Under the pieces are notes generated by a model. It did no database searches and was not told the origin of the DNA. It saw nothing but the letters and a program-made list of their open reading frames with translations. A DNA stretch of 64,000 bases from an uncultured Chloroflexia bacterium. Lineage in GTDB: Bacteria; Chloroflexota; Dehalococcoidia; DSTF01; WHTK01. This document shows positions 20,654 to 52,060 of the stretch, one piece after another. The first letter of the stretch is position 1. Every line of letters begins with the position of its first letter. Made by a program: the position numbers and the translations under genes. The stretch is from positions 273,864 through 337,863 of the forward strand of contig CAVTBL010000004.1 in the NCBI GenBank assembly GCA_963732945.1. Direction: 5' to 3'.

Positions 20654-22195
20654 CTAGTGCTTCAGGCCCGCGTCGCCGGTGTTCGGCGGCGTGATGCAGA
20701 CGTTGTTGCCGATCGGGATACACGCTATCGGTGCGCCGCTGCTCGAGGTCGCGCCGCCGGTTGTGCTCGTCGGGTTCGGGCAGGTCGCGTGCAGAATAAC
20801 GGAGCCGAACTTGTCGCCCGAGGCCGCCGTAACCTTCACGTCGCCCTGGACCGCTCCCACGATGTACTTCACGTTGAGCACGCCGTTGACCGTCGGCGCC
20901 GAAAGCGTGTTGAGTGCCACGTTGGTGCCGTCCTGGTACGAGCCGTCCGGGTTGAGGAACTGGCCGTTCGTCGCCAGGAAGTTGACCACCGTGTTGTCGG
21001 CAACGACCTGGACCTTCGAGTCGCGTACGCTGGCGCCGATGAACACCGTCTCGCCGCAGGTCACCGCGGTCGACGACGCGTTGAGGTCGAGCAGACCGGG
21101 CTGCACCGAGCTGTTCACGTTGGGGCCGGGGCAGAACTGCTGCACCGTCACCACGGCCGCGTCGAAGGTGCGCTCCTGCGTGCCGTCGAGCGTTCCAACG
21201 CTGACCGTCACGTTAGAGGACGTCATGCCAGGCTGCAGCGTCAGGGTCGCGATGCCGGATTCGTTGTTCGCGTCGTTAGGCTGGACCACCAGCAGACCAA
21301 CGTCCGTGGCGAAGTGGAAGCCGAGGCCCGCCACGACGTGACCGTTGGGGTCGCGACCCGAGGCCGTGATCGTGGAGGTGCCGCCGCACTCGATGACGTT
21401 AGGGCTCGCCGTGACGACGACCGAGACATTGGCCTCTCCGGCGAAGCTGCCGCACGCCAGCGAGACGTCCACGGTCGCCGTTTTCACCGCCTTGTCCACC
21501 GGGTCCGCGATCGAGGCCGTGACCTTTGCGGTCGTCTGGTTCGGTCCCAGGGTTAGGGTTGCCGTGTTGTTGGTCGTCTGAGTCAGCAGGCCGCCCGTGG
21601 TCGAGAAGCTGAAGGCCGCGCCGTTGAGGACGTTGCCGACCTGGTCGAAGACGGTCGCGGTGATCGTGGACGTGCCGCCCTGGCACGGCAGGAGGTTGGG
21701 GCTCGCCGACACCGTGACCTGGCCGCCGCCGACGAACTGATTGCCGCCGCCGCTACTCGCCGCGATGCACTGGATGTTCACCGAGGTTACGTCCGCCTCA
21801 CCGGGCTCGGCCGTCACCGTAACGATGCCGTTCGTCGAGCAGGTAACCGTGAGGCGCACCAGAATCGAGCCGATGTTGTCCTCTTCCACGGTGACAATGT
21901 TGCTGGCCGGATCCGAGTCGGTGCAGGACGGGTTGCACGAAACGAGGTCGAGGGTTCCGGAGGCGTTGCTCGCGCCGCCATCGCCGTTGGCCGCAGCGAT
22001 CGTTGTGGATTCAGTGGTGTCTCCGGCGAGGTTCAAATTGACCACGATGATCGTCGAATTTCCGGAGTTGACGCTGGTCGAGTTCGGTACGAGAGGCGGG
22101 ACGACCGTGGCGTTTGCCGCCGTGGATGCGAACGACATTGCGACGACAACCAGCGCAGCTACGGCGGTCGAAATGAGTAGTGGTTTTTTCCGCAT
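20654..22195 (-). CDS. Secreted protein with several bacterial Ig-like (Big_1/invasin-type) domains
   Basis: It has a signal peptide (MRKKPLLISTAVAALVVVAMSFASTAANA). Repeated modules of about 90 aa follow, such as VTASPNVIECGGTSTITASGRDPNGHVVAGLGFHFAT...GIATLTL. I moved the start to 22195, the first Met with a signal peptide. Confidence 0.65.
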   Translation of the reverse strand: MRKKPLLISTAVAALVVVAMSFASTAANATVVPPLVPNSTSVNSGNSTIIVVNLNLAGDTTESTTIAAANGDGGASNASGTLDLVSCNPSCTDSDPASNIVTVEEDNIGSILVRLTVTCSTNGIVTVTAEPGEADVTSVNIQCIAASSGGGNQFVGGGQVTVSASPNLLPCQGGTSTITATVFDQVGNVLNGAAFSFSTTGGLLTQTTNNTATLTLGPNQTTAKVTASIADPVDKAVKTATVDVSLACGSFAGEANVSVVVTASPNVIECGGTSTITASGRDPNGHVVAGLGFHFATDVGLLVVQPNDANNESGIATLTLQPGMTSSNVTVSVGTLDGTQERTFDAAVVTVQQFCPGPNVNSSVQPGLLDLNASSTAVTCGETVFIGASVRDSKVQVVADNTVVNFLATNGQFLNPDGSYQDGTNVALNTLSAPTVNGVLNVKYIVGAVQGDVKVTAASGDKFGSVILHATCPNPTSTTGGATSSSGAPIACIPIGNNVCITPPNTGDAGLKH

Positions 22196-22541
22196 TGCCA
22201 ACCCCTCGTCCTTGAACACGGTCAGCCAGGCCGGATCCCAAATGGGATCCTTCCCGTGGACCGTACGCTTGGGGGTTTGCATCGACGAGCAGCAGTGAGC
22301 GGGGACCCTAGCCGGCCTCGCTCGAGACGTCAAACCCCGCCACCAGCCCGGGCATGCGGGAGTGCCTGGGCTGCCCGATCTACTAACGAAGTCGCATGCT
22401 AAAGAGTTAACGTCCAAACGTCCAGCTTATGCACCTCGAGTTTCGTCAGGAGAGGACGAGAGCAAAGCCACGGTCGACACGCTAAGGAATTTTCGAAGCA
22501 GGCCGACAATTCTGCAGGTGTAATCGAGTTACTGCAGGACG

Positions 22542-22754
22542 GTGATTTGCATGAGCAGCATGAGCATCGCATGTGTCGTAGCGTTGGGCACGGCAATTGG
22601 CCTGGTTCTGGCGCTGCCTGAAGCTGAGCGACTGGATATGGCAGCCGCTGCCTACATCACGATCTTCTTCAACGCGCTTTTCGCGGCCTGGGCGTTCGCT
22701 ATCGGGCGAAGCATCGTGAGAATGGTCCGGGAGTCTGGCGAAACCCGGCGCTAA
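22542..22754 (+). CDS. Possible small two-helix membrane protein
   Basis: This rests on ORF and hydrophobicity only; the RBS is weak. Confidence 0.3.
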   Translation: MICMSSMSIACVVALGTAIGLVLALPEAERLDMAAAAYITIFFNALFAAWAFAIGRSIVRMVRESGETRR

Positions 22755-22769
22755 TTTCGTGACGAAGCT

Positions 22770-24221
22770 TTAGCTCACTTTGAGACGATAAGGACCGATC
22801 GTTATCTCGTCGCCCGGGCTGAGCGTGGCCCAGTCGACCGGCTTCCCCTCGATCAGCGACGGTACCGAGTCCGACAGCTGGTGGAAGATCAGCTTCCCGT
22901 CCCGGCTCCAGATTCGCGCGTGCACGCCGGCGACGCGGCCCTGCGGGTCTTCGAGGCGAAGCTGGTTCGACGCGTCGGTGCCGATGGTCGCGGGCTCGCG
23001 GCCTACGTGCGCGGTCTGTCGCGTGTCCGGGCCCTCGACCTCGATCGAGACGTCGGGCGCGGCCGGCGCCGGTTCGCCCGGAGCCGAGGTCTGCAGCTCG
23101 CCGACGGCGCCGGTGCTCAGCACGGCAAGCTGAGCCGAGAGGCGCCTCGTCTTGAGGCGGTTGTAGCTGAAGGCGCCGCCGCCGACCACAACCCCGACGA
23201 CCAGGACCGCGAGAAGGATCAGCAGGACGGAGCTGCTGTTGCTCGATTCCGTGCCCGTGGCTGCAGGCGCCGGCGCGGCTCCGGCCTCTGTGTCCGCGCC
23301 CGCCACTCCCGTGACGCTGCGAAGCGTCTTGTAGTCGCTGCTGACCTGCAGGGTCCCGGCCGAGCTGTAGATGCGCAGGTCGAGGCTGCGGTCGGCAACG
23401 TTGGGGTCGGCGGTCGAGTTCAGCGTGACCACGTACTGGCTCTTGAGCAGCTGAGCGACCTGCTTGTAGAGGGTCGTCACGTCTGCGCTGGAAGGAGCCT
23501 GGAGGAAGGCGCCGCCGGATTGCGCGGCCAGCGAGGTCAGGAAGGCGCGGTCGATGTCCTGGCCGAGGCCGATGACGTAGAACGGTATGTGGGCGTTCGC
23601 GGCCAGCCTCAGCGCCTGGTCTGAGCTCAGGTCCGAGTGGCCGCCGTCGTCCTTGCCGTCCGAGAGAAACACGATGGCCTTGCGCGGCAGCGTCGCAGCC
23701 TGCGCCGTCTTGATCGAGGTTTCGACGGCCGAGTACAACGCCGTGTCGCCGCGCGCGATCAGCCCGTCGAGCGCCGATACCGCCGCGTTGTGGTCCGCGG
23801 TCAGGCCTTCGACGAGGTTGGCCTGGCTGGCGAAGTTCAGCACGGCAACCTGGTCGGCGGGTTGGAGGTTCTTGACGAAGTCGCTTATCGCCGATTTCGC
23901 GGCGGCCAGCGGCGGTCCGAACATGCTGCCGCTCGTGTCGACCGTCATGATCACGCCGAGGCCGAGGTTCTGGTTCGAGACGGTCTGCAGCTTCGTCACC
24001 GCCGCCGATGCGCCCGTCTCCTGCGCCGTCACGTCGGCCGGCTGCAGGTCGACGACGGGCTGCCCGGTCGAGTCGACCAGCGTCAGCACGGCCTCGACCG
24101 TGGGGAAGGCGCTGTCGTCGACGCTGACGATCTGCGCCACCGGCGCGGCGCCACGCACCGTGGTCCCGCCGGATATGAGGGCAAAGACCAACACGACAAT
24201 AGTGGCTAACGCTGTACGCAC
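22770..24221 (-). CDS. Bitopic protein: signal/anchor, extracytoplasmic VWA domain, TM helix, cytoplasmic FHA domain
   Basis: A GTG start follows GGGAGA. The VWA MIDAS-like motif is DTSGSM...S...GDTALY...FLSDGKDD. The TM segment is VLLILLAVLVVGVVVGGGAF. The C-terminal FHA pattern is TIGTDASNQLRLEDP..VAGVHARI...LIFHQLSD..PSLIEGKPV. Confidence 0.8.
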   Translation of the reverse strand: MRTALATIVVLVFALISGGTTVRGAAPVAQIVSVDDSAFPTVEAVLTLVDSTGQPVVDLQPADVTAQETGASAAVTKLQTVSNQNLGLGVIMTVDTSGSMFGPPLAAAKSAISDFVKNLQPADQVAVLNFASQANLVEGLTADHNAAVSALDGLIARGDTALYSAVETSIKTAQAATLPRKAIVFLSDGKDDGGHSDLSSDQALRLAANAHIPFYVIGLGQDIDRAFLTSLAAQSGGAFLQAPSSADVTTLYKQVAQLLKSQYVVTLNSTADPNVADRSLDLRIYSSAGTLQVSSDYKTLRSVTGVAGADTEAGAAPAPAATGTESSNSSSVLLILLAVLVVGVVVGGGAFSYNRLKTRRLSAQLAVLSTGAVGELQTSAPGEPAPAAPDVSIEVEGPDTRQTAHVGREPATIGTDASNQLRLEDPQGRVAGVHARIWSRDGKLIFHQLSDSVPSLIEGKPVDWATLSPGDEITIGPYRLKVS

Positions 24222-25049: not shown

Positions 25050-25223
25050 ATGCAGTTCATCAATTTCATCAAGGATCGAATCTCCGCTCTGTTCACGGAA
25101 GAGTCCGGCCAGGACGGCATCGAGTACCTGCTCGTCATCGGCGGCATCAGCGTGGCCATCATCGTCGCAGCGTTGCCGCGCTCGTTACTGGTGGCTGCCC
25201 GGCGTCGTCACCGGCGTCTGTGA
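25050..25223 (+). CDS. flp: Flp-family type IVb prepilin
   Basis: GGAGGA lies 9 nt before the ATG. It has the Flp motif G|QDGIEYLLVIGGISVAIIV. The Arg-rich C-terminal tail is atypical, so the 3' end may carry an indel. Confidence 0.75.
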   Translation: MQFINFIKDRISALFTEESGQDGIEYLLVIGGISVAIIVAALPRSLLVAARRRHRRL

Positions 25224-25294
25224 AGCAGCTCATCGACGGTATCATACTCCGGCGTCACCGCTTAGCCTAAGCTGGTCGACTAGGGCGGGACTGG

Positions 25295-25525
25295 CTGTTC
25301 AGCCCGCTCAAGGCTACCCGCGCCCTCTTGACGCGACTGCTTCGCTGATCGAGGACGAGACGGTCAGGCCGGCATCGAGTACCTGCTCGCGATGGGCGCT
25401 ATCGCAGTCGTGGTCGCCGGCAGCTCTTGATCGGCGGCTTCGAGGCCATCGTGCGCGGCGTGCTACCGGTGCTCTGCGACGCGGTCGATCCCCTACGCGG
25501 CGGCGGTAACTGTATCAGCTTTTAG
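25295..25525 (+). pseudogene. flp: Second Flp-like prepilin, reading frame broken at least twice
   Basis: GQAGIEYLLAMGAIAVVVAG is readable in one frame. The leader (...LIEDET) and tail (LLIGGFEAIVRGVLPVLCDAVDPL...) are in other frames. There is no clean start codon. Confidence 0.5.
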
Positions 25526-25558: not shown

Positions 25559-26025
25559 ATGATGAGACTTACGAGCATTCGACGACCGGTGCGACGCGGC
25601 ATCAAGGACGAGAAGGGCCAGGCGGCCATCGAGCTGCTGCTCGTCTTTCCCGTCTTCATCGTTGTCGTGCTGCTCGCCGTCGACTTCGGTCTCTGGATGT
25701 ATCAGACCGTAAGCGTCGCCAGCGCGGTTCGCGACGGCGCGCGCTACGCCGCGGTCAACTGCGGCGGCAACCTCCTGCACCGCGAGCGACATCGCAACTT
25801 ACACGGCCAATCACTCCAGCGGCAGCATCGACGCCGCTCATGTTCACGTGAGCTGGGCGGCGAGTCGGCCCGCCGCGGCCGGCGCCAAGGGCAGCCAGGT
25901 CGTCGTTGAGGCCTGCGCGCCCTACTCGATGATCTTCGCCCCGGTCACGTTCTCGACGGGGCTTGCCTCCAGCGACAACATGCGCGTGGAGCAGTCGTTC
26001 TCCTCCACGGCAGGCGGCTCAGTCA
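25559..26025 (+). pseudogene. tadE: TadE-like pseudopilin (pair 2); one frame break and no stop before tadG
   Basis: It has KGQAAIELLLVFPVFIVVVLLAVDFG...VRDGARYAAV. The frame breaks near 25775. The continuation ends ...DNMRVE, as in other TadE copies, but runs on in frame into the next gene. Confidence 0.65.
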
Positions 26026-27346
26026 TGTCCCTGATGCGGCACGCCATGGGCGTAGTGCGCCTGCTCGCCCGGGAGGAATCGGGGCAAACCGCTATTGCGA
26101 TCCTGCTGGTGTTTCTCGGCGTCTTCGCGCTGTGCGGGCTCTCGCTCGATGCCGGCTTCTGGTACTTCGACCATCGCACAGCACAGAACCAGGCAGACTC
26201 GGCGGCGCTGGCCGGTATCCAGGCGCTACCCTCGTCCAGCACGGGTGGGGCGCTCACGGACGCGGTTACCTGGCTGCAGAACAACGGAATCACGTCCGGG
26301 CTGCCAGTCCTCGACCTCGAGCGACTGCAATCGAGATGGCGTCGAACGATATTCGAGTCGTGGTTACGGATGAGATACCAGCGGGAAACCCGGACGGCAT
26401 CTACGACACCGTCCGCGTTTGCATCCGAAGAAATTCTGCCGTACTGCTGAGCGCGCTATCCGGTGTCGGCGAGGCGAGAGTAAGCGCAGCGGCAAAAACC
26501 AAGACCGGCGGCGCAGAAGGATCAACCGTAATGCCCTGGGCGGCGATTCCCTTCGACCTCAACTGCGATGCAATTGGCGAGATGTGCAACGTGGACCTCA
26601 ACGCCAACGGCGTGCTGGACCCCGGCGAATCAGGCGTCTGCACATTCGTCGACTGTCCCTTCGGCATCGACAATCGGCGCCTGTTTTCGCTTAAAGAACG
26701 GGAACCTGAACCAGTGCAATAGCAGCCAGTACTGCCCGGCGGTCCCCATCCAGGCGTGCGGCAACGGCGCGAGTAGCTACCGCGATTGCATCACCGGCGA
26801 CGCCACGAGCTCGCGGTTTCGCAGGTCGGCGCCACAGTCCAGGTCGATACGTTGCAGGGCAACATGGGTGTCAACACGAGCAATCCCCTGGACCAATGGG
26901 CGACCGACAACGGCGACGCTGCCCAAAACTGCGACGTGGCATCGACACCGGACCAGACGCAGGGCGGCCTCGATACCGACGTGATCAACGGCGTGTTGCA
27001 GACCCGGCTCAACGATCCGGCCTGCGACTACCGCAAAGTCGTGCTGGCAATTGTCTGCCAGACGGCCAACGCGAACTGTGTGCCCAACAACGGCAGCAAC
27101 CACCTGCTCGTAGTGGGGCTCGCCGTGTACTACGTGGCCGGCTGGGATCAGAACGCGGCCGCAGGCTCAACTACGCAAGCCTGCACCCACTACAACGGTA
27201 ATAACGTTCCCAACGGAAAGTTCAATTGCGGGGCTGTCTGGGGCTATCTGCTCAAGGGCGAGGACCCGGCAGGTCGATTCAAGCTCGACGAGATCAGCAA
27301 CAACCCGAACCCATTGGCGCCAATAGTCATCGCGCTGGTTGAGTAG
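26026..27346 (+). pseudogene. tadG: TadG-like protein (pair 2); at least three frame breaks
   Basis: It has ESGQTAIAILLVFLGVFALCGLSLDAGFWYFDHRTAQNQADSAALAG. The pieces continue in other frames, with breaks near 26310, 26690 and 26800. The C-terminus is ...PIVIALVE. Confidence 0.6.
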
Positions 27347-27421: not shown

Positions 27422-28234
27422 ATGACGAGCATCAGTCAGGCACAACGCGGAGGGCGCGCCAACAAACGGCAACTCTGGATTGCTGCCGCTCTCGGTCTGC
27501 TCGCGGCGGTCCTCGTCATCGTGTTCCTCAGCAACGCGGGCAGCAAGGACAACAACAGCAGCACCTCCGTAGCGACGGAGGGCGTCATCGTTGCGTCCCA
27601 GCCGATCGCTATCGGCACGCAGATCACCGCCGATATGCTGACCACCAAACAGGTTGCAACCTCGGCTATCGCTTCCGACGCCATACGCGACAAGACTCTG
27701 GCCATCGGGCAGGTCGCCCGCTATCCGATCTCGCGTGGCGACACCCTGAGCACGGGCGAGCTGGTCGCGGCGCCGCAGGTCAAGTCGCTGTCGTTCGAGA
27801 TCCCGCCGGGCCTGCGCGGCATGACCATCCCGGTCTCGATTAACAACACGCCCTCGGCGCTGATCGCCCCCGGCGACTTCGTCGACGTGATCGTCAGCGC
27901 GGACGCCGTGCTGCTCAACGGCAACGTCGTGACGCTGCCGGGCAACAACCAGCAGCAGGCTCGAGGCTCGGCGACGCTCCTGCAGAACGTGCAGGTGCTC
28001 TCCGTCGACCGCAACTTCGCCGACACCGGCGTCGTCTACGACTCCTCGGTCCGCGGTACGCCGCCCGATGCGAAGGACAGCGTCTCCTTCGTCACCCTGG
28101 CTGTAACTCCCGATCAAGCGCAGCTTCTCTGGCTGGCGCAGGACAGCGGCAAGCTCACCATCGTGCTGCGTGCGTTCGGCGATGACAAAGTCGTCACCCT
28201 CACGCCGGACGTCGAGCCGCTGCAGCTTCCTTAG
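27422..28234 (+). CDS. cpaB: Flp pilus assembly protein CpaB/RcpC (SAF domain)
   Basis: It has an N-terminal TM segment, then VIVASQPIAIGTQITADML and a RcpC-type C-terminal region. GGAGGG precedes the ATG. Confidence 0.8.
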   Translation: MTSISQAQRGGRANKRQLWIAAALGLLAAVLVIVFLSNAGSKDNNSSTSVATEGVIVASQPIAIGTQITADMLTTKQVATSAIASDAIRDKTLAIGQVARYPISRGDTLSTGELVAAPQVKSLSFEIPPGLRGMTIPVSINNTPSALIAPGDFVDVIVSADAVLLNGNVVTLPGNNQQQARGSATLLQNVQVLSVDRNFADTGVVYDSSVRGTPPDAKDSVSFVTLAVTPDQAQLLWLAQDSGKLTIVLRAFGDDKVVTLTPDVEPLQLP

Positions 28235-28260: not shown

Positions 28261-29484
28261 ATGGCCGCGAAATCACGAGTACTGATCATCGACGAAGACC
28301 TCGATAGCCGCGTCGAGACGCGCAAGGCGATTCAGCGCGCGGGCCTGGACAACGCCGGCGAGGTCGGCTTCGGCGCCGAGGCCGTGACCACCGCCAGCGA
28401 AGTGCGCCCCGACGTGCTGCTGATCGCCGTCGAGGAGCCGGTCACGCGCGCGCTGGAGACGGTCGACTCGCTGGCCAACGTGCTGCCCGAGACGCCGATC
28501 ATCTTCTACGCATCCAGCACGGACGCGGACTCGGTACGCCGCGCCGTGATCTACGGCGCCCGCGACTACCTGATCAAGCCGCTGCAGGCCGAGGGCCTCA
28601 AGCAGGCCGTGATCCGCGCCCTCGAGTTCGAAGAGAAACGCCACATGCGCCAGGCGGGGCAGCTCGCATCGGCGCCGGTGCGCGGCACCGTGATCACGGT
28701 CGCGGGCGCCAAGGGCGGCATCGGCAAGTCGGTGATCGCGACCAACCTCGCGCTCGCGTTGCGACAGAAGACGCAGGCCAGCGTCGTCATCGTCGACGCC
28801 GACACGCACTTCGGCGACATCGCGACAATGCTCGACGTGACGCCCACGGTCACGGCCGCCGATCTGCTGCGCGACCTGCCGAAGCTGGACCGCAACAAGA
28901 TCCACGACTACCTCACCGAGGCGCCGCTCGGCGTCTGGGTCCTCGCCGGCTCTCGCGACGAGGACAACGTCTGGGAGGCGGCCGACAAGGACAGCGGTAA
29001 GAAGATCGTCGAGCTCCTGTCGCTCTCGCACGACTTCATCATCGTCGACACGTCCGGTGCCATGGACAGCTTCGTGCGTGAGGTGATCAGCGCCTCGACG
29101 CTGGTGCTCCTGGTTACGACAGGCGAGGTCTCGAGCGTGCGTGATACACGGTCCGCGCTCAACCGCTTGAAGAGTTGGTCGGTGCCGGCCGAGAAGGTCA
29201 AGATTCTCCTCAACCGCGGCGCCCGGGCCGACGGCTTCCAGGTCGCCGACATCGAGAAGAGCCTCGACCGCCCGATCTTCTGGGAGCTACCGCGAGACCG
29301 CGAGGTGGGACGCTCGATTCAGCTCGGCCGCCCCGTCGTTATCGAGAAGCCGGGCACGGCTGCCGCGCGCAACATCACTGCACTGGCTGAGGCGATTGGT
29401 GGCAACGTCAGGACCGCGACGTCCAACGGCCACCGCCCAGGGCTGATGTCTCGCTTCAGCAGAACGAAGCAGGTGGTGGCATGA
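28261..29484 (+). CDS. tadZ: TadZ/CpaE: atypical receiver domain fused to a ParA/MinD-type ATPase
   Basis: It has a REC-like N-terminus (VLIIDED) with Ala at the expected acceptor-Asp position (LLIAVEEP). The deviant Walker A is AGAKGGIGKS. Confidence 0.85.
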   Translation: MAAKSRVLIIDEDLDSRVETRKAIQRAGLDNAGEVGFGAEAVTTASEVRPDVLLIAVEEPVTRALETVDSLANVLPETPIIFYASSTDADSVRRAVIYGARDYLIKPLQAEGLKQAVIRALEFEEKRHMRQAGQLASAPVRGTVITVAGAKGGIGKSVIATNLALALRQKTQASVVIVDADTHFGDIATMLDVTPTVTAADLLRDLPKLDRNKIHDYLTEAPLGVWVLAGSRDEDNVWEAADKDSGKKIVELLSLSHDFIIVDTSGAMDSFVREVISASTLVLLVTTGEVSSVRDTRSALNRLKSWSVPAEKVKILLNRGARADGFQVADIEKSLDRPIFWELPRDREVGRSIQLGRPVVIEKPGTAAARNITALAEAIGGNVRTATSNGHRPGLMSRFSRTKQVVA

Positions 29485-30788: not shown

Positions 30789-30789
30789 C

Positions 30790-42960: not shown

Positions 42961-43595
42961 GCTCGGTCCTCGTCGACAAGATGCTTGCGCAGGTTCACGA
43001 GCGCCCTCGCCTGAAGTGAATACACCGCGGTCTGCGTCTTACCGATGATGCCGGCGACATCCTGCGCGGCGAGGCCCATCAGGTAGCGCAGGATAATCAC
43101 CTGTCGTTGCTCGTTCGGCAGGCTCCGGATTGCGTTGAACAAATCGATGCTGGCTGCAAGGCCTTCGACCCCGGGCTCGATGGCATCGGCATCGGGCGCC
43201 GTGATCATTGCCCGCCGCGCCTCCGCTTTGAGCCTGTCGTATATCAGATTATGCTCGATGCGATACAGCCAGGCGAGGACCGGCCGTCCCGTGTACTCGA
43301 AGCTTTTGATGCCACGCAGCGCCTCGACGAATACCTGCGAGGCCATGTCCTCAGCCTCGCCGCGGTTGCGCAGACGAATGTAGGCGTAGCGGAAGAGGCG
43401 CGGGTAGAACTCCTGGAACCACTGGTCCCAGAGCTCGGGATCGCCGGCCTTGGCCCGGGCGACCTCGCGTATCTCGGCCTGCTGCCGGTCCAGATGAGCC
43501 CTCGCCGATGCGGCAGTCTCGCGCCCCGTGGTTTCTCCGGGGCCGCTTCCCTCGCTGGCCGCCATGTCCCCAATCACGAGCTTGAAGACCCGCAT
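42957..43595 (-). CDS. ECF-type sigma-70 family RNA polymerase sigma factor (pair 1)
   Basis: Region 2 reads FQEFYPRLFRYAYIRLRNRGEAEDMASQVF. Region 4 reads LPNEQRQVIILRYLMGLAAQDVAGIIGKTQTAVYSLQARAL. Confidence 0.85.
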   Translation of the reverse strand: MRVFKLVIGDMAASEGSGPGETTGRETAASARAHLDRQQAEIREVARAKAGDPELWDQWFQEFYPRLFRYAYIRLRNRGEAEDMASQVFVEALRGIKSFEYTGRPVLAWLYRIEHNLIYDRLKAEARRAMITAPDADAIEPGVEGLAASIDLFNAIRSLPNEQRQVIILRYLMGLAAQDVAGIIGKTQTAVYSLQARALVNLRKHLVDEDRA

Positions 43596-44124: not shown

Positions 44125-45366
44125 ATGTTCAAGTTCAAATTAGCGATTCTTCTTGCCGGCGTCACGGCGATAGCGAGCCTGGTCGGGCTCGCAGCGATTG
44201 CGGAAGCTGCGGGTGGACCGCAGGGAACACTTACGTGTGTTGACTCGGCGACCAACTTGCCGTTGGGCATCTATAACAGTCAAAAGTACGCGCTCCAGAT
44301 CGGTGAGACGGCAAACTGCCAGATCATCGACGCCACGGACGCCAGCGGCCTCACAACGACGACAGTCATCATCCAGAGTTCCGATCTTGGCAACGCCAGT
44401 ACCCTCGGGACTGTCACCGGAACCACGATTAGCTTTTCGTGGACTGCTCCGGCCAATGGCTGCAATACGACGATTGTCGCGTGGCTGGGTAAGAGTGGTA
44501 AGCATACGATCGAGTCAGATCCAGGTGGATTCGGCTACGTCGATGCCAATGGCAATCACGTTACGTGTGGGACCAGTACGGGACCTACGCTGGAGACGAC
44601 ACCGTCTGTGACTGGCGCCTTCGTCCCCGTGACGATCAACGACAGCGCCACGCTGGCCGGCGGAACGACCAGCCCTGCGATCAGCGGGACAATCACGTTC
44701 AACCTCTACGGCCCCGGCGACACCACCTGCAGCGGCCCCGTCCTCTACACGGACGTCGTCACGGTTAACGGCAACGGCATTTACACGACGGCCTCCGGTG
44801 ACAACCCTGGGGGTTACTCTGCATCAGCCTCGGGCACGTACAACTGGATCGCCAGCTACAGCGGCGACGGCAACAACGTGGCGCTGAGCGGCGTCTGCGG
44901 CGACGAGGCGATTACTGTCCCGGCGTCCGTGTTCACTGTCAGCAAGACCATAACCATCTCGTCCAGCCAGACCTGCACCTGGGACGTCGACAAGTCTGTC
45001 GATGACAGTAGCCTTGTACTGCAGGACGGCGGTACTGCGACCGTGAACTACACCGTCGACGTCACGAAGTCGTGCGGCGACGTCGTCTACACCGGCTCCG
45101 GCAGCATCACGGTTTCGACCACGGACGGTGTGACCGTCAGCTCGGTCTCCGACCCTGGCGCCGACCTCAGCTGCCCGGTCTTCCCGGTCACGGTCCCGGC
45201 AGGTTCTACGGACTACGAGATCTGCACCTACACCATGCCGGTAAGCAACCCCGACACCGTGACCAACACCGCGACGGTAACGTCCCTCGACGGCGTTGAG
45301 GAGTCAAACGCCACGCTCGACAAGACCGTCAACTCGACCGTCGTAATCGACGACTGTCCAACATGA
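44125..45366 (+). CDS. Secreted Cys-rich protein with Ig-like modules (probably the N-terminal part of one larger gene)
   Basis: The signal peptide is MFKFKLAILLAGVTAIASLVGLAAIAEA. It has an Ig-like module of the type DSATLAGG...GTITFNLYGPGD...GTYNWIASYSGDGNN. The last module appears to continue across the junction. Confidence 0.6.
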   Translation: MFKFKLAILLAGVTAIASLVGLAAIAEAAGGPQGTLTCVDSATNLPLGIYNSQKYALQIGETANCQIIDATDASGLTTTTVIIQSSDLGNASTLGTVTGTTISFSWTAPANGCNTTIVAWLGKSGKHTIESDPGGFGYVDANGNHVTCGTSTGPTLETTPSVTGAFVPVTINDSATLAGGTTSPAISGTITFNLYGPGDTTCSGPVLYTDVVTVNGNGIYTTASGDNPGGYSASASGTYNWIASYSGDGNNVALSGVCGDEAITVPASVFTVSKTITISSSQTCTWDVDKSVDDSSLVLQDGGTATVNYTVDVTKSCGDVVYTGSGSITVSTTDGVTVSSVSDPGADLSCPVFPVTVPAGSTDYEICTYTMPVSNPDTVTNTATVTSLDGVEESNATLDKTVNSTVVIDDCPT

Positions 45367-46664
45367 CGGACACGAATTCGAGCGGGCCGAACGAGCAGAC
45401 CTGCGCCTCGAACACCTACCAGTACCCGGTCGAAATCACCGCCGACGGCTGCGATCAGCAGACCTTCGACAACACGGCGACTGTGAAGGGCGTCGACTCC
45501 GGGGACGGTGACGAAGCATCCGCAACCGTCACGGTCGACAAGGCATGTGTTGCCGTAAGCAAGACTGCGAACGCGACCTGGGGCTCGAAGTGCGATTGGA
45601 CCATCGACAAGAGCGGTCCCGCTTCGGCCGGCGTACCGGCAGGCGGCACCACGACAGTCACATACGCGGTCCTCGTCAACGACGACTGCCAGCAGGTCAT
45701 CGAGGTTTCCGGGACGATCACGGTTGAAAACACCGGCACTGCCAACGTCACGATAACGGACGTCAGCGATCAGCTAGGAGGCACTCTCGACTGCAGCCCG
45801 ATCGAGGGCAGTGCCCTCCAGCCGGGTGACAAGATGGAGTGCACGTACGACCTCGCGCTGGACTCGGCCACAGACACTACCAACACTGCGACCGCGGCCT
45901 GGACCTATGACGGCGGCAGCTCCAGCACGGACAGCGATCCCGTCGCTGTGGACTTCCCCGAGACTCCGACCGGCACCAACACCTGCGTCGTCGTAAAGGA
46001 CGTGACGACCGGCGAGGTCCTGGACTCGGAGCTTTGCGTCAACGAGGTCCCGGCCGGCGGCGCCAGCTACTCCGTCACGGTTAGTCTTGACCCGACGAAG
46101 TGCGGTCCCTACACCAACGTAGCCGAAGTTATCGGCGATGGCAGTACCGTCCTCGACCAGGACGACGCGACCACCACGGTAGGCTGCCTCGGCTACACGA
46201 TGGGCTTCTGGGGTAACAAGAACGGCCAGGAGTTGCTCGCGAGTACCGATGCCTTCACCAACCCCGTGACTCTCGGCATCAACCCGGGCGGCTGCTACGT
46301 CGTCGTCAACACGGCGTCCAAGTCGACGACCATCTTCCCTAAGTCGTTGAACGGATTCTCTGCGATGCAGAACTGCTCGGCACTCGACAAAGGCATAAAC
46401 AAGAACTCGTTCAACACGCTTCTGGGCCAGACTCTGGCGCTCAGCTACAACATTCGCTACGTCGACAACTACGCTGGTCAGTCTATCGGCGACCTGGGCT
46501 GCACGCCTGTCGGTGGCCTGACGTCGGCCAGCACGGTCGAGGACGTTCTTACCTACGCCAACGGTCTGATCGGCAACGCTAAGAGTGGCTACGGCAGCAC
46601 CGTTACGCAGAGCCAGATCGGCGACCTGAACACCCTGCTCGGCTGTCTCAACCGAGAGGCATAG
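45363..46664 (+). CDS. Continuation or second secreted Cys-rich protein; about 150-aa C-terminal domain of unknown family (GFWGNKNGQ...)
   Basis: It has no signal peptide of its own. Its modules are homologous to those of the upstream ORF. An ATGA junction separates them. Confidence 0.55.
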   Translation: MTDTNSSGPNEQTCASNTYQYPVEITADGCDQQTFDNTATVKGVDSGDGDEASATVTVDKACVAVSKTANATWGSKCDWTIDKSGPASAGVPAGGTTTVTYAVLVNDDCQQVIEVSGTITVENTGTANVTITDVSDQLGGTLDCSPIEGSALQPGDKMECTYDLALDSATDTTNTATAAWTYDGGSSSTDSDPVAVDFPETPTGTNTCVVVKDVTTGEVLDSELCVNEVPAGGASYSVTVSLDPTKCGPYTNVAEVIGDGSTVLDQDDATTTVGCLGYTMGFWGNKNGQELLASTDAFTNPVTLGINPGGCYVVVNTASKSTTIFPKSLNGFSAMQNCSALDKGINKNSFNTLLGQTLALSYNIRYVDNYAGQSIGDLGCTPVGGLTSASTVEDVLTYANGLIGNAKSGYGSTVTQSQIGDLNTLLGCLNREA

Positions 46665-46784: not shown

Positions 46785-47651
46785 TCAGGCTGCGGTCGTC
46801 TCGTGATTCATGCTTTCACGCAGCCGCGCCATGATGCGCCGGTGCAGCTGGCAGACCCGCGACTCTGTCAGGCCCAGCGCGCTTCCGATTTCGCGGAAGG
46901 TCATCGAACTGCCGTAGTACAGCTCGACGATCTGCCGATCGCGTTCCGCCAAACCACCCAGGCACTCGATCAGCGCCTGGTGCATTCCGAGCCTTTCGAT
47001 TGCGACCTCAGGGCTGCTGTCTTCGTGCTCGTCCTGTAGCCAGGCCTGGGTGTCCTCTCGCGTCTCGCGGTCGATGGCTTCGAGAGACGCGGCCGCAGCA
47101 GCGTTGGCGCGCAGTTGCCGGACCTGGGCGACGGCCAGACCGGTCCGTACCGCGATCTCCCTGTCCGTCGGCCAGCGCCCGAGTGTATGAGCCAGCTCAA
47201 CCAGTGCAGCATCGAGCTCTCGGACCTGTCGCCGGACCGCGCGAGGCAGCGGGTCGATGCGACGGACGGCGTCCAGGATGGCGCCGCGTATGCGTGGTAA
47301 TGCGAACGTCGAAAGAGAGGCCCCACGAGATACGTCGTAAGAGTCAACGGCCTGGATCAGCCCCATGACACCATACGAATACGCGTCTTCCTTCTCCAGC
47401 CGGCCGCGTGAGCAGATTTGCGACATGCGCGCAACCGTCAACGCGACGAGGCCGAGGTGGCTCTGAATCAAAGCATCGCGAGACGGAGGGGGAGCAGACG
47501 CCACGGCGCTTGCGTGCGTCGCTTCCGTGACTCGGAGAGAGTGATGCTCGTAGGTGAATTCGTAGCTGCGTCTGGAGGCCAGTGGCTCCACAGAACCTTG
47601 CCGGCGGTCCGCGGTTCCTGGTTCGGCTTGTCCCTGACCGCTGCAATCCAC
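46785..47651 (-). CDS. Sigma-70 family sigma factor, group 3 (FliA/WhiG/SigB-like)
   Basis: Region 2 reads LIQSHLGLVALTVARM...EDAYSYGVMGLIQAVDSYD. Region 3 is present. Region 4 reads LAERDRQIVELYYGSSMTFREIGSALGLTESRVCQLHRRI. The exact start is uncertain. Confidence 0.7.
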   Translation of the reverse strand: MDCSGQGQAEPGTADRRQGSVEPLASRRSYEFTYEHHSLRVTEATHASAVASAPPPSRDALIQSHLGLVALTVARMSQICSRGRLEKEDAYSYGVMGLIQAVDSYDVSRGASLSTFALPRIRGAILDAVRRIDPLPRAVRRQVRELDAALVELAHTLGRWPTDREIAVRTGLAVAQVRQLRANAAAAASLEAIDRETREDTQAWLQDEHEDSSPEVAIERLGMHQALIECLGGLAERDRQIVELYYGSSMTFREIGSALGLTESRVCQLHRRIMARLRESMNHETTAA

Positions 47652-47959: not shown

Positions 47960-49852
47960 CTACGAGTCGTTGAGCAGGGCGCTGCTGGGCTCCCGGACGG
48001 CCGGCAACGCCGGTTGAGCCGTCCCGATTGCTCGAAGCTCCCGGTCGCCGAGGACTGCCAGATAAAGCGCCGCCAGGAAGATGGCGCTTTGCATCACGGC
48101 GCCGACAGCGAACATGCGCAGCAGCCCCGGTTCGTGCACGAACTCGAGGGCAAGCGCGGCGAACAGCAGGCTGCCGATGCCGAGGACGGTCTCGGCGCGG
48201 GCCTGGCTGACGGCGTGCAGGCCGGACGCGCTGACCTTGAACTTGTTGGTGCGGCGCCAGGCGATGCTGGACTGGACGAGGCCCTGCAAGCTGGCGACCC
48301 CGCGTACGTAGGTCAGTGCCTTGCTCGTCACGAACGCCCCTAACGTCTCGCCGAGGCCGGCTCGGGACAGCGTCCGGTAGACCAGAGCCCAGTGCACGAA
48401 GCTGGTGAGCAGAGCCACGGTAGCTGTGATCCACAGCACGAACGGCACCGCCACGACTTCGTGATGCAGCGCCATCGAGCTCATTACCGCGGCTCCGAGC
48501 ACCAGGGTCAGGAACCCGAGGCCCATGCTGATGTTCTCGATGCCGTGATTCAGGTGGTGCAGCTTCTGAAGCGGCGTCAGGTTGCTTGGCGCCCCGAAGG
48601 GAGTTGGCAGGAACAGGCGCCAGTGTCGCTTGAACTCCTGCACCGGCCCGACGGTCCAGCGATGTCGCTGCTTCTTGAAGTCTCCGAACGTCTCGGGGAT
48701 CAGTCCGCGGCCGAACGTCTGGTTGAGATAGACCGACGAGTAGCCACGGGCGTGAATGCGGATCGCGAGCTCGGAGTCTTCAGTGGCGCACCACTCGGCC
48801 CACGCGCCCGCTTCCTCGAGGGCCTGCTTGCGGATCACGCACATCGTCCCGACGATGATCGCAGCGTCGCGCTCGTTCTGGCTGACGAGGTTGGTCTCGA
48901 AGAAGTAGCGGTACTCCCAGTAGCACTTGCGCAGGAACGCGTTGTCCTGCCAGTCGCGATAGTCGTGCGGCGTCTGCACGAAACCCATCTGCGCATCGTC
49001 GAAGAAGGGCACCATCGAGCTGAGGAAGTCGCTCTCGACCTGGTAGTCGCTATCGACGATTGAGACAAGCTGAGCCTCAGGGTCGGTGTGCCGGAGCGCG
49101 AAGTTCAGCGCGCCTGCCTTGGCTCCCTGTAACGGGTCGACGTGGAAGAAGCGAAACTCGGGGCCCAGCGCGCGGCAGTGGGCTTCTACGGGACGCCACA
49201 GCGACTCTTCCTGGGTGTTGTTGTCGATGACCAGCACTTCGTAGTTCGGGTAGTCGAGCTTCCTGATCGAGTCGAGCGTGGCGATGACGACGTCGGGTGG
49301 TTCGGCGTGCACCGGTACATGAATCGATACCAGGGGCGCGTCCGGCCCAAAACGGTGCGACCGGGCAGACCTCGGCCGGCGCCAGTCGAGCCGGATCAAA
49401 GACTCCCACTGCTCGACGCCCTGGACGATCGTCGTAACCGTCGTCAGCGCCAGCAGCGGGTAGGCCGCGAACATCAGCGCGCGCGTCACCGGATCGACAT
49501 GGATCGTTGCGATGAACCACAGCGCCCAGGCGAGCCCGAACAGCACGGTCTCGGCGTTGCCCGCGAGCATCAGCGCGCCGACCGGCGAAAGGCCCCGAGC
49601 GACGCGGACCGAAGGCAGCAGAAGCGCGAGGTTCAGGCCGGCGACGAGCAGCGTCAGCGGGTAGATCCCGGACATCTGGCTCGCGAGAGCAACGAGGCAA
49701 GTGACGAGGCCGGCAGCAAGCCGCCCGAATTTGCCGGGTCTCCCCAGGCTGTGTTCCAGGGCGATAAGCAGGACGGAGATACCGAAGCTAAGGGAGGAGA
49801 AGAGAAGCAGGTTCGTCAGCGGGTTACCGAGGTCATTCAATCGCAAAATCAT
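47960..49852 (-). CDS. Processive family-2 glycosyltransferase (polysaccharide synthase) with N- and C-terminal TM bundles
   Basis: It has the D, DxD context (VLVIDNN, IVDSDY), TED (CATEDSEL) and QRHRW (the QxxRW motif), plus about 9 TM helices. Confidence 0.8.
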   Translation of the reverse strand: MILRLNDLGNPLTNLLLFSSLSFGISVLLIALEHSLGRPGKFGRLAAGLVTCLVALASQMSGIYPLTLLVAGLNLALLLPSVRVARGLSPVGALMLAGNAETVLFGLAWALWFIATIHVDPVTRALMFAAYPLLALTTVTTIVQGVEQWESLIRLDWRRPRSARSHRFGPDAPLVSIHVPVHAEPPDVVIATLDSIRKLDYPNYEVLVIDNNTQEESLWRPVEAHCRALGPEFRFFHVDPLQGAKAGALNFALRHTDPEAQLVSIVDSDYQVESDFLSSMVPFFDDAQMGFVQTPHDYRDWQDNAFLRKCYWEYRYFFETNLVSQNERDAAIIVGTMCVIRKQALEEAGAWAEWCATEDSELAIRIHARGYSSVYLNQTFGRGLIPETFGDFKKQRHRWTVGPVQEFKRHWRLFLPTPFGAPSNLTPLQKLHHLNHGIENISMGLGFLTLVLGAAVMSSMALHHEVVAVPFVLWITATVALLTSFVHWALVYRTLSRAGLGETLGAFVTSKALTYVRGVASLQGLVQSSIAWRRTNKFKVSASGLHAVSQARAETVLGIGSLLFAALALEFVHEPGLLRMFAVGAVMQSAIFLAALYLAVLGDRELRAIGTAQPALPAVREPSSALLNDS

Positions 49853-50198
49853 CCTCTCGAAGTCATGCGCCCGATTCCACGCTGTGACTCGCCAACGACT
49901 GCAAGAAGAGCGATTCGATAGGTGAGCACTCCTCTTTCATGACGAAACCTGGCCATTTCTGAACGTGCTCGCGAACTTGACATACTGATCGCGCACGAGC
50001 GTTTCGACTCGAACGCCTCGGACGTTGCGTATGACGATGGCCCGAGGCATGCCGCGAGCGAGGCGTCACATGGTCGGCTCGGCCGCGTTGTTCTAGTCAG
50101 CGATATCGCAGGATGACGGGGAGCAAGGGACACGCTAAACTTGCTTCAGCTTCCCCGCGTCTTCGCCAGTTTGATGCCGCCCGGGCAAGGACTACTGC

Positions 50199-50810
50199 GT
50201 GACCAGCGCGCGCACTCTTAGCGGTCAGCCTGCAGCCGATGAGCGAGAACCCGATCTCGTTCGAGACCTGAAGGCGCGCTCGCCCCAGGCCTGGGAGCAG
50301 CTGTTCAACGATCACTACGAACGTCTCGTGCGCTACGTCGCGGTGCGCGTTCGCAACCTCGAGGAAGCGCAGGACGTTGCCTCCAGCGTCTTTTTGCGGG
50401 CGCTGAAGAACATCGACACATACCGGTACACCGGGAAGCCGGTCGTGGCCTGGCTCTACGGTATCGCGCAAAACCTCTTGAGGGAGCGGTTCCGCAGGGT
50501 CAAGCAGGAGACCGGGTTCGATGCCTCCGAGGCGTTGCTGAACATGGCCGCTGCCGGGACCTTGAACGGCGCCAGCGGCTCGACCGCGCATATCGAGAGA
50601 CTCGACCTTGAAATCGAGATCTCGCGGCTCACGCCTCTCCAACAGGAAGTGCTCGTCTTGAGGTATATAGCCGGCTTTCGTGGGCGCGAAGTAGCCTCCA
50701 TGTTGGGAAAGAGCGAAAGGGCAGTCTACTATCTCGAGGCAAGGGGACTGGTGCGATTGCGCGATAGTCTCGGTCTTGAGGTAAAGAAGGCGGGTCAGGC
50801 CAATGACTGA
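50199..50810 (+). CDS. ECF-type sigma factor (pair 2), paralog of 42957-43595
   Basis: It reads WEQLFNDHYERLVRYVAVRVRNLEEAQDVASSVF...GKPVVAWLYGIAQN...LTPLQQEVLVLRYIAGFRGREVASMLGKSERAVYYLEARGL. Confidence 0.85.
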   Translation: MTSARTLSGQPAADEREPDLVRDLKARSPQAWEQLFNDHYERLVRYVAVRVRNLEEAQDVASSVFLRALKNIDTYRYTGKPVVAWLYGIAQNLLRERFRRVKQETGFDASEALLNMAAAGTLNGASGSTAHIERLDLEIEISRLTPLQQEVLVLRYIAGFRGREVASMLGKSERAVYYLEARGLVRLRDSLGLEVKKAGQAND

Positions 50811-52060
50811 ACGCCGGAACCGGCTCAGCGAGGTGTTTGGTGACACGCTGGCGCGCCTGACCACGGATTCGAGTGTCGCGTCGGTGGTGGCGTACCTTCA
50901 GGACTACGAGCGCCTCGTGCTGGACAGCGGCCTCAGCCCCGACAGCCTTGTCCCTACCGAGACAGACGTTCAGGCGATCTTCCGGCTGATCCTGGACCTC
51001 CGCACCTTGACGCTCGAGGTGCCGCAGGCCAACGCTCGAGATCGCTTCATGCGCCAGGTCGCCATCGCGCGCGCCGATTACCTCGCCGACAGGGCCAGGA
51101 AGGCGGCCCGTCGCAGCAAGGCGAACAGCATTGCCGCGGGCGTGGCCGCGGTCTGCATCCTCGCGGCAACCGCGAGCGTCGCCGGCGCGACCAGCGACCT
51201 GCCGAAAGTCACGCTACCGGTCTCCCTGCAGGACATCGTCGACGCGATCTCCCCCTCAAAACCCGCAGACCAGAACGGCTCCCAGGCAGCGCCCACGCTG
51301 CCGTCTAACGTGTCCAGCGCCAATCAGGTGACGGGGCTCACTGGCGTCGATAGCGAGAACAGCGGCATCTCGGCCGACGGTTTGCCTGGCGTCGCCGAAC
51401 TGCGCCAGGTCCTGGAGACGCTGCAGAGCACCCTGCTCGACGAGCAAACGGCATCGCCGGCGGCGTCAGGCGACGTCACTTTCGGAGCAGAGACCTCGAA
51501 AGGGTCGAGCCAGGCTCCGCTCGCGCCTAACACCGCTTCGAGCACGCAGAGCGCCGCCGGCCAGTCAACTGCCACCGGGAGCTCTTCTGTGCAGTCGGGC
51601 TCTGTCGCTAGTCAGCCCAGCACGCCGGCAACGCAGCCGGCCACGTCTCCTGTCGACATGCAGCCGGGTTCAGATCACTCCGGGACAACCGGCGGCCAAT
51701 CGGCTTCGGCGCCCGGCGTGACCGGCGCGACACCTGGTCAGAGCGGTTCGACTCCTGGTCAGAGCGGCGGGGGAGGCGGTAGCCAACCGAGCACCGCACC
51801 GGGCTTGACGGGCTCGACGCCTGGGCTGAATGACTCGGCGCCGGGTCTGTCCGGTTCAACCCCCGGTCAGTCCAGTTCGGCCCCTGGTAATTCGGGCTCC
51901 GCTCCGGGTAACTCTGGCTCCAGTCCGGGTCAGTCTGACGCCACACCCGGCGGGCTCCGGCTCGGCTCCGGCTCAGTCCGACTCCTCGGCCAGCTCGGGC
52001 ACGAATGCCGGCCAGTCTGGCTCATCGAACGGCTCCTCAGACTCTCATGCCGGACACTAG
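50803..52060 (+). pseudogene. Putative anti-sigma factor (pair 2) with one TM helix and a Ser/Gly/Pro/Thr-rich tail; one frame break near the 3' end
   Basis: It overlaps the sigma gene by 8 nt. The TM segment is IAAGVAAVCILAATASVAGA. An extra G in the GGG run at 51952-51954 breaks the frame. The corrected tail ends ...SSNGSSDSHAGH* at 52060. Confidence 0.55.

Follow-up and report, generated by a model that had tools for sequence, protein, structure and literature searches.

Dehalococcoidia are abundant, mostly uncultured bacteria of soil, groundwater and marine habitats, whose surface biology is, to our knowledge, almost unstudied. Here, we analyse a 64,000-nt stretch of DNA (the window) from a genome of this class of Chloroflexota, with a GC content of ~63% throughout, and within it the span 20654-52060, which encodes a Tad/Flp pilus machine, pseudopilins, an LPXTG repeat adhesin next to a sortase, further secreted Ig-like proteins, a processive glycosyltransferase and three sigma factors. 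Using Pfam and NCBIfam scans of the open reading frames (ORFs) of the window, a comparison with 80 tad loci centred on CpaF, and an alignment with one sister species (ENA ERZ25039495 contig_8870, represented by loci L101 and L102), we find that the span is probably a genuine cell-surface gene cluster built of separable modules and not one conserved unit. Only its core recurs in relatives, which makes the whole a lineage-specific neighbourhood rather than a new 32-kb functional unit.

Gene content of the cluster

The locus is a monoderm-type member of the Tad/Flp pilus family, with all defining components tested present (Table 1). CpaB, TadZ, CpaF, TadB, TadC and a prepilin peptidase were recovered by Pfam and NCBIfam, in line with the one tad machine listed in a preliminary description of this DNA, in which the span had been presented as a single surface-attachment island. 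No secretin (RcpA/CpaC) was matched by Pfam among the scanned ORFs; the locus is thus of the monoderm type, and this absence is expected without an outer membrane and leaves family membership unaffected. The receiver fold of TadZ is real, and as the stretch DVLLIAVEEP occupies the position of the acceptor Asp, which is absent, the earlier label "pseudo-receiver" is correct. The VWA-FHA protein named in the same list also has its Pfam domains, arranged in the order signal peptide, extracytoplasmic VWA domain, single transmembrane (TM) segment and cytoplasmic FHA domain (VWA-TM-FHA), and in this genome its gene is divergent from the machine operon.

Just two Flp motifs (G/xxxxEY) occur in the window, at ~25107 and ~25362, which agrees with the two flp genes described before, and their reading frames are disturbed. 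The flp-sized ORFs 24344-24520 and 47115-47300 lack an Flp motif and were rejected as further candidates; the second runs antisense within the gene of a sigma factor. Three pseudopilin pairs had been placed in the span: two do lie inside it (25559-27346 and 39242-41349), whereas the third is found outside, at 5745-7405, 13 kb to the left of the cluster and without an flp, machine or extracytoplasmic function (ECF) sigma factor gene beside it. Genes near this third pair encode Usp and KdpD-N/Usp proteins. The second pair is part of a set composed of ECF sigma 1, the putative anti-sigma 1, tadE2, tadG2 and a zinc-ribbon-like membrane protein, the last with no match in Pfam or NCBIfam. This set is inverted, has no flp gene and mirrors the 5′ half of the canonical operon.

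How does this arrangement compare with known systems? Tad genes are the only pilus system of Chloroflexales (PMC7332563). The components found here are those of the monoderm Tad/Flp pilus of Actinomycetota and Chloroflexales (rcpC-tadZABC, tadE/G, flp), likewise with no secretin, whereas the Dehalococcoidia loci add VWA-TM-FHA, an ECF sigma factor with a small partner, and DUF192. Moreover, the present genome combines the machine and a pilin set like that of locus L001 (flp, flp, tadE1, tadG1) with a second, inverted copy of the 5′ half that holds the regulatory and pseudopilin genes, and the sortase/adhesin pair is located between the two. FHA and vWA domains are also tied to type IV filament control in Sulfolobus, where the archaellum regulators ArnA (FHA) and ArnB (vWA) are soluble proteins, distinct from each other, whose genes never lie in type IV pilus loci (PMC4858521); in contrast, a single gene of the pilus locus encodes both domains here, fused in a protein that spans the membrane, and the likeness is at the level of domains. 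Our literature search on Dehalococcoidia and the Flp pilus found no paper. The association of VWA-TM-FHA with ECF, the terminal DUF192 gene and the sigma-28-type promoters discussed below are specific for the class, and we found no description of them in the literature searched.

The pilus genes are accompanied by a large surface protein. Three large Ig-like/DUF11 proteins had been proposed, and the Ig-like and DUF11 content is indeed present, but a 780-aa Ig protein and a DUF11 protein do not exist separately. Instead, ORFs 33722-36064, 36123-36926 and 36418-37947 make up one LPXTG protein, with a signal peptide, ~7-10 tandem Ig-like repeats of 126-135 aa, DUF11, SpaA_4 and a Pro-rich stalk, followed at the C-terminal end by LPGTG (37816-37830), a TM segment and the basic tail RVRRGAR. 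The 378-nt repeats of the gene follow each other with start-to-start spacings of 405, 378, 378, 406, 378 and 379 nt. The spacings of 406 and 379 instead of 405 and 378 point to two +1 indels, which account for the three reading frames.

The sortase and the glycosyltransferase of the preliminary description were both confirmed by Pfam and NCBIfam. For the sortase, class F is the top NCBIfam match, yet at 115 bits it stays below the cut-off of 166; its homologues carry the source name class F sortase, and by eye we recognise the motifs HVDY, ITMITC (TLxTC-like, with the catalytic Cys) and VVRAV, in keeping with the catalytic His, Cys and Arg of the sortase fold. Gram-positive systems that pair a class F sortase with DUF11/SpaA-fold adhesins show the same LPGTG-TM-basic tail and the same position of the sortase directly downstream, and differ from the present pair in that the host here is a member of the Chloroflexota and a position next to tad genes is specific to the genus. 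We saw neither a pilin motif nor a second substrate resembling a pilin, and the substrate therefore looks like a wall-anchored adhesin, not a sortase-assembled pilus. The pair of substrate and sortase is retained in L101 and in L081. In the latter, which has the next-closest sortase (77% identical), a DUF11/SpaA_4 substrate lies directly upstream and HAD, Rieske, glyoxalase, MetE-like and luciferase-like genes follow, such that only the pair is kept.

Two further secreted proteins flank this core. The Big1-like protein at the left end shares 84% aa identity with its counterpart in L102 and has a conserved C-terminus (…ITPPNTGDAGLK) with no membrane anchor. Its very end (20654-20700, minus strand), …CIPIGNNVCITPPNTGDAGLK(H/Q), is identical in both species and resembles a sorting motif, with no hydrophobic anchor after it. 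To the right, Ig413 and Ig433 may be a single gene, considering their 4-nt overlap and the signal peptide on the first ORF only. Their C-terminal domain is 88% identical in L101, with the middle replaced and a differing repeat content. This 158-aa domain of Ig433 (46190-46664; GYTMGFWGNKNGQ…LLGCLNREA) is an orphan that belongs to no Pfam family and has only 27 homologues in 5.8 billion proteins. It is joined or adjacent to SpaA-like/Ig-like domains in several matches and in the L107 context, and in the two contexts read none of the homologues is near tad genes.

The family-2 glycosyltransferase (GT2) carries the signature D (VIDNN), DxD (DSD), TED and QRHRW. It has no PilZ match and no BcsB-like neighbour, and reaches 120 bits with the cellulose synthase CelA model, far under the cut-off of 699. 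A metagenome scan returned 18 GT2 loci at 45-53% identity, of which the five longest were checked and have a GC content of 44-49% or 66%; the neighbours of these relatives are unrelated to the cluster, except for a TadG-like gene in L088. On that GC-rich contig (L088:1-3165, 61% GC) the TadG-like gene, 31% identical to tadG2, is located directly upstream of GT2.

Table 1. Features of the window, ordered by position.
Feature	Position	Strand	Basis or remark
Third pseudopilin pair, tadE3 (6947-7405, 152 aa) and tadG3 (5745-6947, ~400 aa), intact	5745..7405	-	Outside the span
Secreted Big1/Ig-like protein (~513 aa from MRKKPLL), signal peptide	20654..22195	-	Weak Pfam Big_1, E=0.0015, below cut-off
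Weak sigma-28-like site, tentative	22483..22509	+	2 mismatches; upstream of small membrane-protein gene (22551)
Small conserved membrane protein (~67-70 aa)	22551..22754	+	90% aa identity to 71-aa L102 gene
VWA-TM-FHA protein	22770..24221	-	Pfam VWA 6e-16, FHA 1.3e-4
flp1 prepilin (…ESGQDGIEYLLVIGG…)	25050..25223	+	40% identity to intact L001 Flp; Flp motif scan
flp2 prepilin (…GQAGIEYLLAMGA…), frames 2>0>2	25290..25520	+	Shift positions differ from those of the sister
tadE1 pseudopilin, frameshift ~25765-25775	25559..26030	+	Pfam TadE 1.9e-13
tadG1-like pseudopilin (~435 aa)	26040..27346	+	Pfam Tad 2e-6; collinear with intact 445-aa L001 TadG
CpaB/RcpC	27422..28234	+	Pfam RcpC 1.2e-22, SAF
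TadZ/CpaE, receiver-like domain without acceptor Asp plus ParA/MinD ATPase	28261..29484	+	Pfam; sequence/PDB matches to MinD and CheY
CpaF/TadA secretion ATPase	29481..30788	+	Pfam T2SSE 8.6e-65
TadB and TadC platform proteins	TadB 30769-31746, TadC to 32665	+	Pfam T2SSF in both
TadV-type A24 prepilin peptidase	32575..33228	+	Pfam Peptidase_A24 1.6e-9
DUF192 protein	33239..33631	+	Pfam 2.6e-19; usual final operon gene in the class
LPXTG repeat adhesin, one gene (~1,400 aa) in three frames	33722..37947	+	Pfam, repeat spacing
Sortase, best match class F	37944..38609	+	Pfam Sortase 4.4e-23
Zinc-ribbon-like (CxxC…CxxC, C-terminal) membrane protein, final gene after tadG2	38630..39082	-	~75-78% aa identity in sister
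tadG2 pseudopilin (522 aa), intact	39242..40810	-	Pfam Tad 1.5e-11
tadE2 pseudopilin, intact	40831..41307	-	Pfam TadE 8.4e-17
Sigma-28 (FliA/WhiG)-type promoter candidate TAAAGGTT-N12-GCCGATAC	41396..41423	-	~90 nt upstream of tadE2 ATG
Putative anti-sigma 1, N-terminal helical part, one TM segment	41491..42960	-	Start overlaps ECF1 stop
ECF-type sigma 1	42957..43595	-	Pfam Sigma70_r2 and r4
Secreted Ig-like protein(s) Ig413+Ig433 (413+433 aa)	44125..46664	+	4-nt overlap
FliA/WhiG-family sigma, regions 2/3/4	46785..47591, or to 47651	-	TIGR02479 192.1 bits, cut-off 189.6
Processive family-2 glycosyltransferase GT2, multi-TM	47960..49852	-	Pfam and NCBIfam
ECF-type sigma 2	50199..50810	+	Pfam; 40% identical to sister's ECF1 orthologue
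Putative anti-sigma 2, one TM segment, Ser/Gly/Pro-rich tail	50803..52060	+	Position/topology

Conservation, composition and borders

The comparison set consists of 80 tad loci, almost all from metagenome-assembled genomes of Dehalococcoidia/Chloroflexota, with at most 10 kb on each side of CpaF and many contigs that are shorter. CpaF of the window is 56-68% identical to that of the 80 loci, none being closer among species representatives; the nearest of these loci, L001, served as the reference for intact Flp, TadE (177 aa) and TadG (445 aa). A co-oriented order recurs in the set, namely VWA-FHA, ECF, a ~80-aa partner, flp, TadE, TadG, CpaB, TadZ, CpaF, TadB, TadC and DUF192. Upstream sequence of at least 7.5 kb is available for 46 loci; of these, 31 have VWA-FHA before CpaF, 26 have ECF and 22 have both. 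Downstream, VWA-FHA is present in 8 of 59 loci, and DUF192 follows TadC in 42 of 59. The sortase, its substrate (query DUF11_509), the Big1-like protein, Ig413/433, the FliA/WhiG sigma factor and both anti-sigma candidates were detected within 10 kb of CpaF in none of the 80 loci, and the queries for GT2 and for the N-terminal part of the adhesin (Ig780) gave one weak match each (L040 and L070). The entity conserved at the level of the class is the tad core with VWA-FHA, ECF and DUF192.

The sister species shows how far conservation extends within the genus. Over the 31 kb of this close relative that were compared, rightward to the window equivalent of 48.2 kb, nucleotide identity is ~86% and the Tad machine proteins are 92-97% identical at the amino acid level. 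Collinearity with the sister, in the same gene order, begins exactly at 20654, where the Big1-like gene has its 3′ end, and continues to ~46.9 kb. The left flank of the sister contains different genes, and at its right end the last ~70 aa of the FliA/WhiG sigma factor and the last ~95 aa of GT2 remain, after which similarity stops. The block conserved at genus level is 20.65-46.9 kb and the right-hand 5 kb are variable; the full 32-kb combination was seen in no other genome, this one sister carrying the 20.65-46.9 kb part.

These comparisons answer the question, raised in the preliminary description, of whether the whole block is conserved: across the 80 loci and the sister it is not. The proposal that the genes are more than a chance neighbourhood holds for the core, whose linkage recurs in many genomes, and is not supported for the whole 32 kb as a unit. 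That the combination is undescribed as a unit is probably true, but trivially so, as it would be for any lineage-specific neighbourhood, and we attach no wider significance to the 32-kb "island" itself. More useful is that a tad architecture typical of the class can now be defined, with VWA-TM-FHA, an ECF sigma factor plus small partner, and DUF192 as fixed partners, and that it comes with a testable regulatory hypothesis of sigma-28-type promoters on tad operons.

Could the whole 32 kb nonetheless be one integrated, co-regulated adhesion/biofilm programme, in which the pilus, the adhesins, an exopolysaccharide synthase and five regulators are held together by selection? All modules encode envelope or surface functions, 26 kb are collinear in the sister despite its different left flank, and the remnants of the sigma factor and GT2 in that species show that the two genes were adjacent in the ancestor. 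In addition, a sigma-28-type promoter is located within a cluster that encodes a sigma-28-family factor. We nevertheless consider such a programme unlikely, as there is almost no recurrence beyond the genus, with no match in the 80 loci to the sortase, its substrate or the FliA/WhiG factor and with the single weak matches to GT2 and the adhesin N-terminal part mentioned above. Furthermore, the sister has lost the sigma factor and GT2 yet kept the promoter, the pair of sortase and substrate adjoins metabolic genes elsewhere, the sigma factor of the cluster is a dispensable paralogue of a core gene, and no shared ECF-type motif was found.

In the reading that we prefer, the span would resolve into five separable modules. 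Module A would be the secretin-less Tad locus, flp1-flp2-tadE1-tadG1-cpaB-tadZ-cpaF-tadB-tadC-tadV-DUF192, together with the divergent VWA-TM-FHA gene; module B would be the inverted operon of ECF sigma, anti-sigma, tadE2, tadG2 and the zinc-ribbon membrane protein; and module C, between these two, would comprise the class F sortase and the giant LPXTG repeat adhesin. The further secreted Ig-like proteins could be grouped as module D, and the accessory FliA/WhiG paralogue, the processive GT2 and the second ECF pair as module E, at the variable right end.

From gene identities, synteny, the promoter motif and its conservation we infer how these parts might work. TadV would mature the Flp prepilins and the pseudopilins, and CpaF, TadB and TadC, positioned by TadZ and CpaB, would polymerise the pilus through the single-membrane envelope, while the sortase would attach the repeat adhesin to the wall. 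Expression may be gated by the ECF/anti-sigma switch and by the sigma-28-type promoter in front of tadE2-tadG2. VWA-TM-FHA would couple an extracellular binding domain to a cytoplasmic reader of phosphothreonine, and would serve in signalling or as a scaffold for the machine.

Several points weigh against separable modules and the roles that we assign to them. The 26-kb block is intact in two species with differing left flanks, which makes selection for a larger block possible, and tblastn may miss fast-evolving adhesins in the 80 loci. Neither anti-sigma candidate has a match in Pfam or NCBIfam, the calls being based on position and topology. The sigma-28 promoter of tadE2 is a candidate, recognised from sequence only, and no sigma-28 motif is found upstream of cpaB or the flp genes of the window itself. 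Finally, the frame changes described below are unevenly distributed, with ~7 in the 1.9 kb from flp to tadG1 and 0 in ~6 kb of machine genes.

Composition bears on the question of a foreign origin of the span. The comparison of GC content and codon usage with the flanks that had been proposed earlier was run, and span and flanks match (GC 0.637 versus 0.633; GC content at third codon positions 0.814 versus 0.826, p=0.27; relative synonymous codon usage r=0.99; 4-mers r=0.97), with no foreign signature. The reported lack of mobility genes and tRNA was borne out as well: there is no tRNA in the window, no integrase or transposase match, and no flanking direct or inverted repeats were found. The block is present in the one sister, with its different left flank and decayed right end, and we saw no empty site. 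On these data, acquisition of the span by horizontal transfer, as a genomic island or mobile "widespread colonization island", is highly improbable. Such an origin would fit the left boundary at 20654, which matches the synteny break with the sister and the different genes to its left, and tad loci reportedly move horizontally (Tomich et al. 2007, cited in PMC7332563). However, the span cannot be told apart from its flanks by composition or codon usage, tRNA, integrase, transposase and flanking direct repeats are missing, and the core locus is typical of the class, its CpaF having its 56-68% identity to Dehalococcoidia/Chloroflexota loci only.

Sigma factors and candidate promoters

Two pairs of ECF sigma and anti-sigma factors had been described in the span. 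Both sigma factors were recovered by Pfam, with regions 2 and 4 only, whereas the anti-sigma partners are putative and without a family match. By eye, the N-terminus of anti-sigma 1 loosely resembles the ~80-aa protein that follows ECF in relatives. Its tail (41500-42310) consists of ~270 extracytoplasmic residues that are nearly all Gly and Asn (GNGNG…SNNGNG), encoded by degenerate 27-nt repeats, and the tail in the sister is shorter and divergent. For anti-sigma 2, an end at 52060 needs a frame change near 51960, as judged by inspection.

The third sigma factor has regions 2, 3 and 4 and passes the FliA/WhiG model, in agreement with its earlier annotation. A second copy, encoded on the same contig, shares 61% identity with it and is in turn 94% identical to a gene in an unrelated context on another contig of the sister's assembly. 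Sequence comparison marks the factor of the cluster as an accessory paralogue, with the core FliA/WhiG gene located elsewhere. No RsiG-like or FlgM anti-sigma factor was recognised here. In another Dehalococcoidia locus (L104:10001-14074), a FliA/WhiG homologue (44% identical) precedes a gene for an HD-GYP-type (HD_5/MASE9) protein and lies near one for a GGDEF protein, a context reminiscent of the cyclic di-GMP (c-di-GMP) link of WhiG in Actinomycetota.

What might such a factor control? In non-flagellated Actinomycetota, WhiG/sigma-28 controls type IV pili, as described for the RsiG-WhiG switch of Rubrobacter and the zoospore pili of Actinoplanes, and the flagellar/WhiG consensus of -35 TAAA and -10 GCCGATAA, which the motif described below matches, defined the WhiG-dependent type IV pilus promoters in Rubrobacter (PMC8325347, PMC13595943). 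The pattern TAAA-N13-18-CCGATA occurs 2 times in the window against 0.03 expected. The candidate promoter of tadE2 is the sole match of the position weight matrix in the window, with 1 mismatch and a 16-nt spacer relative to TAAA-N15/16-GCCGATAA, and its -10 element is conserved in L101. Nine of the 80 relatives (L018, L038, L047, L050, L054, L055, L057, L058 and L060) carry the same motif, as TAAAGCTTg-N11/12-(A/G)CCGATACATC, 74-112 nt in front of cpaB and ~2.3 kb from CpaF on its upstream side, where it is a candidate for a FliA/WhiG-dependent promoter of the machine operon; the 1.2 Mb of tad loci contain no other strong match. The weak site in front of the small membrane-protein gene has its core TAAGGAATTT...CCGACAATTC kept in L102.

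At up to two mismatches the sigma-28 search is not enriched across the window (8 sites versus ~6 in shuffles), and only sites with at most one mismatch stand out. The generic ECF pattern GGAAC-N15-18-CGTC gave 4 matches versus 4.6 expected, and we found no shared ECF-type motif. No sigma-70 consensus promoter was found in the window and terminator-like sites are not enriched; Rfam at gathering threshold returned nothing, and hence no c-di-GMP riboswitch.

Two other motif observations are of a minor nature. A sigma-28-like site with 1 mismatch at 7439-7465 (plus strand), TAAAAAGCGGAAAAAGACTTCCGATAA, is located in an AT-rich intergenic region upstream of tadE3 and points away from it; it has no convincing downstream gene and may be a chance occurrence. 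The motif TAAACCG(C/T)CG..GGAACCGAAAC (plus strand) is found just upstream of the VWA-FHA gene in L019 (1690) and L027 (848), and in L036 (1258) about as far upstream of CpaF, and may be a promoter of the whole canonical operon.

The sequence motifs make it plausible that a sigma-28-family factor is linked to the tad genes, and with a core FliA/WhiG copy encoded elsewhere this link does not require the copy in the cluster. More tentatively, FliA/WhiG sigma factors may have been recruited in Dehalococcoidia to drive Tad operons, the paralogue of the cluster adding an extra layer to a class-wide control by ECF/anti-sigma and VWA-TM-FHA; we see this as a possibility that falls short of being likely. 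The promoter form behind it, TAAAGCTT-N11/12-(A/G)CCGATAC, precedes cpaB in the nine relatives and tadE2-tadG2 in the window. As in the actinobacterial examples, a FliA/WhiG factor occurs without nearby flagellar genes, none of which were seen in the fetched Dehalococcoidia loci (loci only, not whole genomes), and a matching promoter precedes type IV filament genes. The present case differs in that the host belongs to the Chloroflexota, the filament is of the Tad class and not a type IVa pilus, the link is drawn from motifs and gene content, and the island copy of the factor is lost in the sister. If true, it would carry the actinobacterial theme of type IV pilus control by WhiG into another phylum and over to Tad-class filaments.

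Reading-frame breaks and flanking genes

Compared with their intact L001 homologues, flp2, tadE1 and tadG1 show six frame changes in all, three of them in tadG1 (~26310-26390, ~26700 and ~26790), and flp1 probably has a frame change too, with its C-terminal tail possibly out of frame. Are these genes decaying? The four genes, together with the big adhesin, could be truly pseudogenised or phase-variable, in a locus that is degenerating or that uses the second pseudopilin operon. The concentration of changes in the pilin genes next to an unbroken set of machine genes would agree with this, as would the poorly callable pilin region of the sister and the tadE1 junction, which is out of frame in both species. 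On the other hand, the positions of the shifts differ between species: flp2 is broken at different codons, the first tadG1 shift of the window is absent in L102, and the tadE1 junction, in a GGCGGCGCGCC-like stretch, measures 12 nt in L001, 13 nt in the window and 14 nt in L102. Conversely, L101 is shifted in tadB, tadC and anti-sigma 1, all three of which are intact in the window.

The metabolic genes of the flank are affected as well. Two EthD-like tandem paralogues (13500-15421, minus strand; ~250 aa each, ~81% nt identity) are both broken by 1-nt indels, with an extra base near 14812 in copy B and an extra C near 14274 in copy A, which makes the frameshifts a window-wide and not a cluster-specific phenomenon. 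Furthermore, the "contig_NNNN" record names of the sister assembly suggest long-read metagenome data, and the shifts of the window fall in repeats and paralogues, where consensus polishing fails, and in strain-variable pilin genes. With shifts that are unshared with the sister, that extend to the flanks and that sit in repeats and paralogues of a long-read-type assembly, the most likely explanation for the broken frames of the pilin, pseudopilin and repeat genes is consensus error in a long-read metagenome assembly, and true decay or phase variation seems quite unlikely. The pattern calls for caution, as indels break gene calls exactly in the pilin and adhesin genes of such assemblies.

The nearest reference locus has a rearrangement of its own: in L001:5556-8585, a tandem duplication reads cpaB, an N-terminal fragment of tadZ, cpaB again and full tadZ, and an OmpR-type response regulator is located upstream of both flp genes. 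In the window, the flanks at 7811-19646 and 59138-64000 contain paralogous sets of MetE-like (Meth_synt_2), EthD, IclR and SBP_bac_5 genes, which suggests duplicated catabolic or transport clusters around the surface-gene block. Directly to the right of the cluster, the 1.5 kb at 52200-53670 have little coding signal except for a 73-aa cold-shock-domain gene (52604-52825).

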